IMG/VR virus record: IMGVR_UViG_3300042260_000337
DNA length: 64,000 nucleotides
DNA from: a virus
Taxonomy: Duplodnaviria; Caudoviricetes
Direction: 5' to 3' (one strand)
The translations under genes were made by a program, and so were the position numbers. Shown in pieces: positions 54,803-58,631 of the stretch. Position 1 is the first letter of the stretch, and each line of letters opens with the position of its first letter. The notes under the pieces were generated by a model. It did no database searches and was not told where the DNA came from. It saw only the letters and a program-made list of their open reading frames with translations.

Positions 54803-55444
54803 TTATCGTCTTACTACCCAACCACGAAAGTTATAGCTTTGCCAAACTTGGTCTGCATGACCAAGATATTTCAATTCTTCGGTGATTTCGGCATTAGTCA
54901 AACAAAACATCTTACCAATCAAACTGTAATCTTTATCCAAAATCTCAGTATCGGTGAAGTGTTTTCGTTTTTGGTTGTAGTGTTCTTTTGTCATGATAGA
55001 GTTTAGTTTGGCGGTATCACTGAATACCTTTTCGGCAAGTAGCAGTGTTGCACCGTTGTCTATCAACTCTTTCAACTTTTTTACAACTTGTCGGCGTTTG
55101 TATTTACCAAGAAACTGTAACGTGAACATAGATACGATCAGGTCAACGGATGTAAAGTTTTCCAATGCAGTGATTACATCTTGGTTGAGAAACACAAAAT
55201 TTTTATCAGACGCCATTTCAACTACGTCAATACCTACGTAGAAGCCCTCTGTTGAGGCAGAGAGGTCATTGAGAAACTTACCAGTGCTACATCCAATGTC
55301 AACGCACTGACCCTCTGGTGGCATGTATTCAAGGGCTATGGCTCTAAAAACGTCATATAGTCCTTGGTAGTTTGGAATAGAAAGGTTGATGTGATTGTCG
55401 AAATCTTCAACCTTCTGAAAGTCAAACTTGTTGTGCATCATCAA
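54803..55444 (-). CDS. cmoA: CmoA-like (carboxy-SAM synthase family) SAM-dependent protein
   Basis: F....FD.HI..SIPNY, DIGCSTG, FTLQFL, AEK, EI..K..L..M, VWQSYNF align with CmoA. Confidence 0.75.
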   Translation of the reverse strand: MMMHNKFDFQKVEDFDNHINLSIPNYQGLYDVFRAIALEYMPPEGQCVDIGCSTGKFLNDLSASTEGFYVGIDVVEMASDKNFVFLNQDVITALENFTSVDLIVSMFTLQFLGKYKRRQVVKKLKELIDNGATLLLAEKVFSDTAKLNSIMTKEHYNQKRKHFTDTEILDKDYSLIGKMFCLTNAEITEELKYLGHADQVWQSYNFRGWVVRR

Positions 55445-56315
55445 ATTCCCGTATCAACTCACCAACATGCTGAATGACATTTACCGTCATTCCATTATAC
55501 ACGAACTTTTGAGTATCGGTTAGGTCGCAACCATCAAACCAATCAATTGGGAACGACTGTAGAAGTAGTCGTTCAGTTGGAGTAACCCTGCGTATTCTAT
55601 TTTCAGTGATTACCAAATCTGTAAACTGTTTATAGTCTCGTTTACAAAGAGTTGATGCTAATCCTGATTCGGTAAATTCTGCATTGCTTTGACGAGTGAT
55701 GTAGGTAAAGGCTTCTTGCCCTCTTTCTGGCTTCGCCTCAAAACTCCACTCAAAGCCTTGTGAGATAGATTCCACTTTTCTTCTGTGTTCGTCAGTATCA
55801 CGTTCTCTAAACTTGAAGATTTCGGTTCCAAGGGGGATTCCGTCACGGACGGCCACAATGTAAACTCTACGTCTTCGTTGGGGAACTCCAAAAAACTTGG
55901 AGTCGTAGATTGTCCAAGTCGCATCGTACCCGATTTGGGCAAGGTCGTGTAGGACGACTTCAATTCCTCTGCCAAGGATTGCAAAGACGTTTTCAATGAT
56001 CGCATATTTTGGTTTCCCTTCATCTATAAGTCGTAGATACTCTTTCCATAATCCAGAACGTTCACCAGTAATGCCAGCACCTTTTCCACCTACAGAAATG
56101 TCTTGGCAAGGGAACCCCCCGCACATAACATCATACTCTCCACCTTTCAGTGAGAGAGTTTTTACGTTGTCAAAAATAACAGCGTTAGGAAAATTCTTTT
56201 TTAGAACCCGTGTGGCTGGTTCTTCGATTTCACACATGGCAGTTATATCAAACCCTGCGCGTTGAAGCCCAAGTTCAAAGCCACCGATTCCACTGAATAG
56301 TCCTAATACTTTCAT
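55422..56315 (-). CDS. C5-cytosine DNA methyltransferase-family enzyme
   Basis: LFSGIGG, GGFPCQD, ENV, QRRRRVYIV, RR.TP.E...LQ.FP. Confidence 0.9.
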   Translation of the reverse strand: MKVLGLFSGIGGFELGLQRAGFDITAMCEIEEPATRVLKKNFPNAVIFDNVKTLSLKGGEYDVMCGGFPCQDISVGGKGAGITGERSGLWKEYLRLIDEGKPKYAIIENVFAILGRGIEVVLHDLAQIGYDATWTIYDSKFFGVPQRRRRVYIVAVRDGIPLGTEIFKFRERDTDEHRRKVESISQGFEWSFEAKPERGQEAFTYITRQSNAEFTESGLASTLCKRDYKQFTDLVITENRIRRVTPTERLLLQSFPIDWFDGCDLTDTQKFVYNGMTVNVIQHVGELIREFDDAQQV

Positions 56316-56358: not shown

Positions 56359-56550
56359 TCAAGCCACTAAAAAGTTGGCATCTTCCAAATCTTCTCGTAG
56401 GACAAAATCATCAGGAAGTTCAACAGTCTTTCCTTCCATCACGCTTTCAATAAGTCTTTTACTTTCAAGTAAACTTTTTCCAGTGTGCTTTCTAACGGCA
56501 TTTATAGCAGAATATGAGTTTGCTCTATGTTTGCATCCTATAATAAGCAT
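56359..56550 (-). CDS. Ribosomal protein bL12 (L7/L12) C-terminal-domain-like protein
   Basis: AN...INAVRKHTGKSLLESKRLIES ... LEDA vs bL12 [27 protein letters not shown] ... LEEA; 63 aa, no N-terminal domain. Confidence 0.7.
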   Translation of the reverse strand: MLIIGCKHRANSYSAINAVRKHTGKSLLESKRLIESVMEGKTVELPDDFVLREDLEDANFLVA

Positions 56551-56970: not shown

Positions 56971-57692
56971 ATATCTATTTTCAAATTTTCTAACATGGTT
57001 CCGTTGAAATCAGCAAACTCAACCTTTTTTGTTGACAAGTATTTTTCTGCGACTAATTTAAGATGGTCATAGTTATCTACTATTGTCTTTTTACTTGGTG
57101 CTTTTAATTTAGATATATCAAATGGTGTTAGATTTTCTATTGGTGTATTACACAGTTCCATATTGGCAAAATCAACAACAGGATCAAAAGTAAGATTTTC
57201 CATATATACGATTTCATTATACTGAATATTAAAATCGTTTCTGCATATATATCCCAAATCCCATAACTGATTATCAACATACCATATAATCATATCATCT
57301 GTTATTTCAACTTTATCGAAGTTATGATATTCAACAAATTCTTTTTTTATATTTGCGATAGCAAGACTCAATGCACTTTGAAAGACATCTTTTCTTAATA
57401 TGACAATCGTATAATATTTTTTTTGGTAATATCGATCTATGACCCCATAGTCTTTCAAATCCACAATTTGAGTAATATGCGTTTTCATTACTACGGGGTC
57501 ATGTCGTTCAATGAAATTCAGCCGACTATTAAAAAGATTTGCTATTTCAGACGAAGATGTTATTTCTGGTGGTATTAGAAATGGTTCATTTACACAAACA
57601 TAATTTTTGTTCAGACTTGTCATGTGATGACAAATCATTCGTTGCATATATGTCGAACCATTTCTTGGATTACTTATTATTTGAATATTCAT
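56961..57692 (-). CDS. Sulfotransferase-like protein (Stf0 type)
   Basis: IISNPRNGST PAPS-binding loop; LRKD.F.SALS. Confidence 0.65.
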   Translation of the reverse strand: MNIQIISNPRNGSTYMQRMICHHMTSLNKNYVCVNEPFLIPPEITSSSEIANLFNSRLNFIERHDPVVMKTHITQIVDLKDYGVIDRYYQKKYYTIVILRKDVFQSALSLAIANIKKEFVEYHNFDKVEITDDMIIWYVDNQLWDLGYICRNDFNIQYNEIVYMENLTFDPVVDFANMELCNTPIENLTPFDISKLKAPSKKTIVDNYDHLKLVAEKYLSTKKVEFADFNGTMLENLKIDMRP

Positions 57693-57737
57693 TGTGTTAT
57701 TCCTTTGAATAATATTTATTCAATAGTGTGCTGCTAC

Positions 57738-57923
57738 GCCAAAGGAAAACAGAGCCAAAAATATCATAACGAGCGATTATGTTTCTGTTACTGTCCGCAT
57801 TTTCCCGCCCAGCCTCTCCCTATACCACTTGTTTTCACAGCCCGATATAGTCTCTTTGCGTTCACGGTGCTTCGTTCCACTCTTTAAAGGATGTGCTGCC
57901 TCTAAGCCAACCTCCTACTGAAC
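57738..57923 (-). ncRNA. Structured RNA containing a copy of 23S rRNA H43/H44 (uL11-binding GTPase-associated centre)
   Basis: AGGAGGTTGGCTTAGAGGCAGCACATCCTTTAAAGA (57916-57881) vs conserved 23S AGGAGGTTGGCTTAGAAGCAGCCATCCTTTAAAGA; closed by GTTCA/TGAAC; further helices downstream. Confidence 0.75.
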
Positions 57924-58631
57924 TTTCAAGTAATCATATTCTCCGCTTAGTAACTTTTCAACAAACGCAGGAACCATTTCTGTTGCAACCCCATCCATAC
58001 TTTCTGTAAACATATACTTGTTTTCAGAAGGATGTAGATTGATTTCAACAGTATGTGCTCTTGCTTTTTTCTTTGCAGTCTTCACAAATCCAGCCGCAGG
58101 ATAAACTGTTCCAGATGTTCCAATCGCAACAAAGATGTCACAACGTCTAAGTGCATCATCAATCACTTCCATGTAGTATGGAAATTCACCGAACCAAACG
58201 ATGTTTGGGCGTAATGCAGGATGATAGCAATCATCACAAATATCGTGTGTTTGCATCACTTCATTTGCAGTTGTAATGTCTCCACATTTTCTACAAATAG
58301 ATTCGTGCAAACTTCCATGCATATGCAATACGTTTTTTGACCCTGCTTTTTCATGTAAGTCATCTACGTTTTGAGTAATCAAAGTAACATCAAAATTTGG
58401 ATTATGCTGTAATGCTGCTAAAGCATAATGCGCTTTGTTTGGTCTTGCATCGGCAACTTCTTTACGTCTATGGTTATAGAAGTCTAATACAAGTTTTGGA
58501 TTTTTATAGAAACCTTCTGGGGTTGCTACATCAGTTACATCATATTCATTCCAACGTCCATCGGTATCACGAAATGTTTTGATTCCGCTTTCTGCGGAAA
58601 TTCCCGCCCCTGTCAATATGCATATTTTCAT
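57915..58631 (-). CDS. cobB: Sir2/CobB-family NAD-dependent protein deacylase
   Basis: GAGISAESGIKTFRD, FY..RR, TQNVDDLHE.AG, HMHGSL, LRP.IVWFGE, GTSG.VYPAA, EIN. Confidence 0.93.
   Translation of the reverse strand: MKICILTGAGISAESGIKTFRDTDGRWNEYDVTDVATPEGFYKNPKLVLDFYNHRRKEVADARPNKAHYALAALQHNPNFDVTLITQNVDDLHEKAGSKNVLHMHGSLHESICRKCGDITTANEVMQTHDICDDCYHPALRPNIVWFGEFPYYMEVIDDALRRCDIFVAIGTSGTVYPAAGFVKTAKKKARAHTVEINLHPSENKYMFTESMDGVATEMVPAFVEKLLSGEYDYLKVQ

Follow-up and report, generated by a model that had tools for sequence, protein, structure and literature searches.

The GTPase-associated centre (GAC) of 23S ribosomal RNA (rRNA) is a domain of 58 nucleotides (nt) bound by ribosomal protein uL11 and by thiostrepton, and RNAs that imitate ribosomal-protein (r-protein) sites are already known in the form of autoregulatory leaders, among them the rplJ/L10 leader (RF00557), which imitates the L10(L12)4 site on helices 42 to 44 (H42-H44). 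Phages are known to carry transfer RNAs (tRNAs), transfer-messenger RNAs (tmRNAs), ribosomal proteins and translation factors. The element considered here lies on the minus strand, at positions 57924-57716, of a 64,000-nt stretch (hereafter the window) of the Caudoviricetes record IMGVR_UViG_3300042260_000337. Comparison with its relatives marks it as a putative non-coding RNA gene, with a product of about 207 nt, and there is no open reading frame (ORF) of 40 aa or more on its coding strand. The ends of this RNA are predicted to make up the complete uL11-binding GAC domain (the end of H42, H43 and H44; E. coli 1051-1108) as a free-standing replica with its own closing helix; between 1090 and 1091 a variable inserted domain branches off and turns H44 into a three-way junction. 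What would be new here is a trans-encoded replica of a whole rRNA domain in viruses. A description of such an RNA was found neither in Rfam 15 nor in the literature searched (open-access papers and bioRxiv only), in agreement with an initial annotation, drawn from the letters of the window, which knew of no such phage RNA.

The likeness to the 23S GAC extends to the H43 and H44-loop sequences, to the helices, to the U1060/A1088 partners and to a covarying 1072/1092/1099 triple. The phage RNA differs in standing outside any rRNA, in replacing the rest of H42 by a generic closing helix of 9 bp, in having H44 opened by an insert and UUU(G/A), in carrying A1101 instead of U and in keeping A1067 in only about 80% of members; the window copy departs further through A1070G and through an additional A that bulges from the H43 stem. 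With the autoregulatory leaders it shares the character of an extra-ribosomal mimic of a stalk-base r-protein site, but the leaders act in cis in cellular r-protein messenger RNAs and hold few determinants, whereas the phage RNA presents the full domain among tRNA genes; neither an r-protein gene downstream of the element nor a match to an Rfam leader was found. T4 species 1 and 2 (rnaC/rnaD), ROOL and GOLLD likewise lie in phage tRNA arrays, in the orientation of the tRNA genes, and are presumably cut free by tRNA-processing enzymes. No kinship of sequence or structure with them was detected; the Rfam models of ROOL and GOLLD gave no match, and rnaC/rnaD are likened by their setting only. The mode of action proposed below, that of a stable RNA imitating the nucleic-acid ligand of an abundant protein, resembles that of the protein-titrating 6S RNA and CsrB/RsmZ, but these have other ligands and other structures, and titration by the phage RNA is something that we only infer.

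A permissive Rfam scan of 57600-58000 (401 nt) gave a sole match, in which positions 1096-1145 of LSU_rRNA_bacteria align to 57915-57867 of the minus strand (16.3 bits, E 0.0053), and no further rRNA reached the gathering score in the 64-kb window; this is the isolated match that the initial annotation had expected. Its reading of the minus strand from the stop codon of a Sir2 gene as a near-exact H43 was also sound. The match to bacterial 23S H43 runs over 57915-57879 (-), and the only differences from the consensus are A1070G and one A inserted between C1075 and C1076, A1067 being retained at 57903. When the region was aligned with the three relatives found first, a second conserved block came to light about 130 nt downstream of H43. 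In most members this block reads GCGUAAUAGCACAC and corresponds to the GAC H44 hairpin and its 3' strand (E. coli 1091-1104; Rfam consensus GCGUAAuAGCUCAC). The window has it unbroken at 57739-57726, past an insertion of 135 nt, as the hairpin GCGUAGCAGC with ACAC after it (1091-1104). Because the H44 block is found intact downstream, the element is best taken as a complete domain split between 1090 and 1091, and the earlier proposal that the H44 loop had been rewritten as GTG-GAACGAAG-CAC has to be given up; the GUG/CAC hairpin is not conserved in relatives. Nor is the GTTCA/TGAAC pairing that had been thought to close the domain conserved in relatives, the closing helix being formed instead by 57923-57915 with 57726-57718 and covarying across the family. 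The 3' limit first placed at 57738 falls inside H44. Three helices proposed for the insert (CTATATC/GGTATAG, AACAGA/TCTGTT and CATAA/TTATG) do appear in its minimum-energy fold, and comparison lends support to one of them, through a compensatory change in the relative L047 (L numbers denote loci).

The RNA begins with the 5' strand of the closing helix P1 (57924-57915, minus strand throughout; the end of H42, E. coli ~1047-1055), in which the 9-bp pairing starts at 57923 and which holds the Sir2 stop codon TAG (57917-57915). The 5' half of the GAC (57914-57879; E. coli 1056-1090), assigned from the Rfam LSU alignment and from covariation at 1057/1081, 1058/1080 and 1082/1086, comprises the base of H43 (57914-57909), its distal stem-loop (57908-57893, with G1070 at 57900 and the extra A at 57894), positions 1077-1081 (57892-57888), the U1082-A1086 hairpin (57887-57883) and GAGU 1087-1090 (57882-57879). 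The inserted domain (57878-57744) is closed by GGAA/UUCC (57878-57875 with 57747-57744) and is followed by the junction UUUG (57743-57740), a linker ahead of G1091 recognized by its conservation in the family. Alignment with relatives places the H44 hairpin at 57739-57730, with A1095 at 57735, and ACA 1101-1103 at 57729-57727, with A1101, a U in rRNA, at 57729. The 3' strand of P1 (57726-57716) starts from C1104, and the end of the element at 57716 is that of the covariance-model match. The 1072/1092/1099 triple of the window copy is C/C/G. With the window left out, 16 relatives were used to build a covariance model, which matched 57924-57716 over the full model length (88.1 bits, E 3.6e-24), while Salmonella 23S rRNA scored 49.5 bits against the family model in a local match only.

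Homologues were gathered by BLASTN on phage records and by pattern scans of IMG/VR and of GTDB genomes; the pattern-based sampling is biased towards the conserved blocks and the IMG/VR counts are lower bounds. On the widest parse of the loci, at least 219 distinct homologues were obtained from IMG/VR contigs, contigs of metagenome-assembled genomes (MAGs) and isolate phages. A pattern confined to the 5' block recovered 87 distinct elements among the matches listed, the 3' block being present, by fuzzy matching, in every non-truncated one, and patterns confined to the 3' block recovered the H43 block; the architecture is therefore no artefact of the patterns. BLASTN revealed the element in three unrelated Pseudomonas phages (UNO-G1W1, pf16 and Milchi), each copy unannotated and within a tRNA array. 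Enterobacterial isolates bearing it are Cronobacter GAP32, Pectobacterium CBB, Serratia BF, six Erwinia pEa_SNUABM phages, Erwinia Kaldavass and Yersinia fHe-Yen9-03/04, and it was also found in Xanthomonas XbC2, XaC1 and XacN1, Acinetobacter ME3 and Aeromonas 4_4572. Annotation of the element is absent in nearly all of these named isolates. The closest relative of the window element is L047, on a 518-kb contig, which has the same bulged extra A and abuts a tRNA-Thr gene; a megablast of 12 kb of the window against phage records found no phage relative.

Eighteen matches came from loci filed as genomes. At least one tRNA gene is present in 13 of them and nine or more in six, some with suppressor tRNAs or a tmRNA gene. 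A bacterial origin of these matches was rejected, as such tRNA- and tmRNA-rich loci look like phage contigs binned into MAGs. Two of the MAG-binned contigs (L229:1758-2108 and L320:4772-5131) carry tmRNA genes and tRNAs with a CUA anticodon (amber suppressors) in the arrays that hold the element; these contigs probably belong to large phages, in which a stop codon may have been recoded. Paenibacillus phage Pd_22F (L339:1493-1561; MZ092003.1 near 83976-84013) has an uninterrupted 23S-like H42-H44 with no insertion and an rRNA-type H42, inside a 1.7-kb unannotated region close to the end of the record. By its sequence this stretch looks like real host rRNA, captured or mis-assembled, and outside the family.

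Covariation was computed on a model-based alignment of 90 matches, which leans towards the modelled structure, and the counts are raw, with phylogeny ignored apart from the within-clade switch described below. Standard pairs filled 92.9% of cells against 70.9% in shuffles, and both sides were changed in 467 cells against 146, a figure reached in 0 of 500 shuffles. The covariation score was 0.507, compared with 0.06-0.16 (at most 0.157) when the partners were slid. Compensatory changes affect seven of the eight modelled pairs of P1, two of three at the base of H43 and all four of the helix that closes the insertion. Anchored counts in 84 parsed members gave G-C 33, U-A 28, A-U 16 and C-G 3 at 1058/1080, and U-A 49, C-G 20 and A-U 8 at 1082/1086. 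The GAC pairs present in the family are 1057-59/1079-81, 1062-64/1074-76, 1082/1086 and 1091-92/1099-1100, one member having a compensatory U1091-A1100.

The tertiary fold could be followed through the triple 1072/1092/1099, for which members were picked by the 3' block alone and 1072 was left free. Among the matches listed, 185 distinct elements divide into C/C/G (127), U/U/A (56) and C/U/A (2), with no case of U/C/G. Inside a single clade of about 85% identity, C/C/G occurs in GAP32 and CBB and U/U/A in L410, L393 and Yen9-04, indicating that the switch was no single inherited event. The same isosteric triple was reportedly described in rRNA phylogeny by Conn, Gutell and Draper in 1998. The covariation among relatives that the initial annotation had named as a check is thus present in all helices and in the triple. 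Taken together, the covariation of helices and base triple indicates that these RNAs are selected to adopt the GAC tertiary fold, beyond mere resemblance of sequence, and on this comparative evidence the GAC-like secondary and tertiary contacts are judged to be under selection in the phage family.

Near-invariant positions are U1060, G1071, U1083-A1085, G1087-A1088, G1093-A1095, A1098 and A1103. U1060 and A1088 were found in all 84 parsed members, although GAGU is demanded by the parsing pattern, so that the figure for A1088 records presence and not free conservation. Among the 87 members found with the 5'-only pattern, which places no constraint on the H44 block, G1093 is kept in 87, U1094 in 86, A1095 in 84 (97%) and A1098 in 87, and A1101 occurs in 84. 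Positions 1061 and 1097 are variable, as they are in rRNA. A1067 is relaxed, with A in 146 of 183 members (~80%); by class of triple, A is present in 113 of 127 C/C/G members, and among 56 U/U/A members 33 have A and 22 have G. In the junction UUU(G/A), the three U residues are kept in 86, 86 and 83 of the 87 members; at the fourth position 76 have G and 11 have A. An alternative register of H44, drawn by RNAalifold, in which the junction G pairs with C1102, is unlikely: A replaces that G in 11 of 87 members with no change of C1102, which makes the rRNA-like register G1087-C1102 the likelier one. The H42-like P1 sequence AGACAGCCAGG/CUGGCCGAG is kept in only three members (L160:1051-1180, L422 and L399); by sequence these may be less derived forms, or their mimicry may be stretched towards the uL10 site.

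The genomic setting of the family is dominated by tRNA genes. Among the matches listed, a tRNA gene on the same strand lies within 30 nt of 84 of the 219 elements, and a tRNA is found within 2 kb of 141; in this wider range 738 tRNAs share the orientation of the element and 3 oppose it. This co-orientation and proximity strongly suggests that the element is co-transcribed with the tRNAs and freed by tRNA-processing enzymes. The window contains 17 tRNA genes, all on the minus strand, at 52.6-61.1 kb. Its element is located between the Sir2-family gene (57915-58631, -; PF02146 SIR2, E 2e-46) and a 243-aa ORF without any Pfam family, all in one direction of transcription, and the next start codon is 23 nt downstream. 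A sigma-70-like promoter, TTGAAA-17 nt-TATGAT (57961-57933, -; 10/12 matches), was recognized within the last 50 nt of the Sir2 gene, with a predicted start at about 57926, 2 nt ahead of the element. Promoter-like sites are not enriched in the region (8 against 7.7 in shuffles), so the evidence for this promoter is weak.

On these grounds the RNA is read, with somewhat more confidence than doubt, as a stable decoy, or sponge, that stands in for the ribosomal stalk base by binding uL11. It would be freed together with the tRNAs, or in the window possibly be made from its own promoter, and would accumulate as a stable RNA. Its rRNA-like fold would bind host uL11, a protein that recognizes exactly that fold. 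Either free or exchangeable uL11 would be titrated, or a uL11-RNA surface would be shown to the factors that dock there, to the advantage of the phage. A possible pay-off, speculative as it is, would be a blunted uL11-dependent activation of RelA; the physiological pay-off is the least certain step of the proposal. According to mutagenesis in the Draper laboratory, uL11 binding relies on the junction and the tertiary structure and tolerates changes of A1067. Ryan and Draper are said to have found by mutagenesis that A1067 matters for thiostrepton and EF-G and is dispensable for L11 binding. The pattern seen in the family, in which the contacts of the fold are kept and A1067 is relaxed, is what would be expected of a ligand that reads the fold as uL11 does, and a uL11 decoy is favoured for that reason.

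Several observations weigh against this reading. Conservation of A1095 and the H44 loop is stricter than binding of the L11 C-terminal domain (CTD) alone should need, looser conservation of this loop being expected from the footprint of that domain, and this may point to a ligand that recognizes the face at which factors bind. About 12 of the 84 members bear a second hairpin of 23-50 nt after A1077, in the internal loop of H43 (among them L009, L051, L067, L090, L160, L179, L199 and L201), at a site that we take to be near the footprint of the uL11 CTD. The junction UUU(G/A) and A1101 are strictly conserved and have no counterpart in rRNA. A sponge would have to outcompete the ribosomes, which number tens of thousands and have uL11 bound already. 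The folding energy of the window element is unexceptional (z = -1.39), and no tRNA abuts it, the nearest being ~725-745 nt off on either side.

A broader proposal, which we put forward only tentatively, is that the family represents a widespread phage counter-measure against the stalk base. A GAC replica made in bulk with the tRNAs might capture exchangeable uL11, leaving host ribosomes 'relaxed' and RelA unactivated, or might soak up a host immunity factor or toxin that reads or modifies H43/H44. If this is true, a virus would be seen here for the first time to deploy a replica of an rRNA domain.

The suggestion of the initial annotation that the RNA scaffolds a mini factor-binding centre is weakened by the sequence comparison. 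A1067 is replaced in about 20% of members, and no sarcin-ricin motif (AGUACGAGAGGAC-like) or BLAST match to the sarcin-ricin loop (SRL) region was found in the window element and 84 other members. A short-word BLAST of these 85 members against Salmonella 23S rRNA gave nothing consistent beyond the GAC. The phage record, which is partial (202.7 kb, estimated 56% complete), encodes neither uL11 nor uL10, and the only candidate for bL12 is a 63-aa ORF (56359-56550, -) that weakly resembles the bL12 CTD over residues 13-37 only (PF00542, 13-15 bits, E 0.02-0.04, cut-off 25.9 bits). This sub-threshold match in a partial record further weakens the idea and leaves the wider notion of a system made of a GAC plus bL12 unsupported.

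An unlikely but serious alternative is that the RNA shields ribosomes during infection as a decoy or bait for an attacker or reader of the GAC other than uL11, from the host or from a competitor, for which it would be a substitute target or a competitive inhibitor; candidates are ADP-ribosyltransferases of the Tre23 type, nucleases, methyltransferases, thiopeptides, a translational GTPase or a stringent factor. Phage tRNA arrays, in which the element sits, are known to counter tRNA-targeting defences with replacements or decoys, and the H44 loop, which is exposed, is near-invariant even where no pattern constrained it. Toxins that modify the GAC do exist, Tre23, cited in PMC13768812, being one that modifies the 23S GAC. 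A GAC-targeting anti-phage system was, however, not found in the literature searched, and no conserved partner gene was identified. A stoichiometric decoy would also be a poor defence against a catalytic toxin. Finally, A1067, which is a main contact of EF-G and thiopeptides, varies in the family.

The inserted domain raises the question of a scaffold, in which the GAC would be a handle for uL11 (perhaps also uL10 and bL12), or for nuclease resistance, and the insert would carry a phage-specific activity such as protein or RNA binding. All members have the insertion at the same site, 1090/1091, with a closing helix that is paired in 84, 83, 76 and 60 of 84 members, by all Watson-Crick types, and the conserved UUU(G/A) junction follows. 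About 30% of the inserts moreover end in a common hairpin, (G/U)CACCCC-tetraloop stem-GGUAAGG(C/A), with covarying closing pairs (e.g. L001:2640-2675, L003, L053, L147 and L208) and no match in Rfam. Against this, the inserts range from ~40 to 340 nt in length and vary highly in sequence, most of them having no feature in common; the insert of the window is without the GGUAAGG hairpin, and neither an SRL-like nor another 23S piece accompanies the GAC in any of the 85 members. The Rfam 15 models, group I introns included, gave no match other than LSU in the window element or its insert at E up to 10. A scaffold seems improbable.

Still less credit is given to a cis-acting role, as a processing, stability or translational-control signal for the neighbours or for a tRNA precursor, for example a uL11-responsive leader of the 243-aa ORF. 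Leaders of r-proteins that mimic rRNA sites are well known, and the window copy is suitably placed between co-directional ORFs, close upstream of the next start. The downstream neighbours, however, differ among phages, being mostly tRNAs and in the other cases ORFs that bear no relation to each other. The domain is closed by a terminal helix of its own, it does not occlude a ribosome-binding site in any conserved manner, and Rfam, as noted, offers no leader family. Such a role is very unlikely. That the element is a non-functional piece of host 23S rRNA, through an assembly chimera or as a decaying captured fragment, is refuted by the comparative data, which support the initial annotation in its view of a free-standing phage copy of the uL11-binding GAC that is no fragment of an rRNA operon: H43 is near-identical to rRNA, and the unrelated Pd_22F record does hold an uninterrupted 23S-like stretch, but only the 58-nt domain is present here, with a family-specific insertion, UUU(G/A), A1101 and a P1 of its own, there are hundreds of homologues, some of them in complete isolate genomes, and the compensatory changes in helices and triple point to purifying selection on the fold.

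Whatever its ligand, the RNA would point to a new route by which phages interfere with translation, stringent control or ribosome-directed immunity, and it would provide a compact RNA of natural origin as a tool for uL11 binding. As the family occurs in the cultured pairs GAP32/Cronobacter, CBB/Pectobacterium, BF/Serratia, pf16/P. putida and ME3/Acinetobacter, the role of a free GAC in the infected cell is directly testable. For annotation, it is relevant that such elements stand unannotated in GenBank phage genomes and may be mistaken for rRNA contamination.

One further observation concerns the tRNA region of the window. At 54803-56315 (-), the coding region for a C5 cytosine DNA methylase (PF00145, E 2e-53) runs into the beginning of one for a class-I S-adenosylmethionine methyltransferase (Methyltransf_12/25, FtsJ-like).

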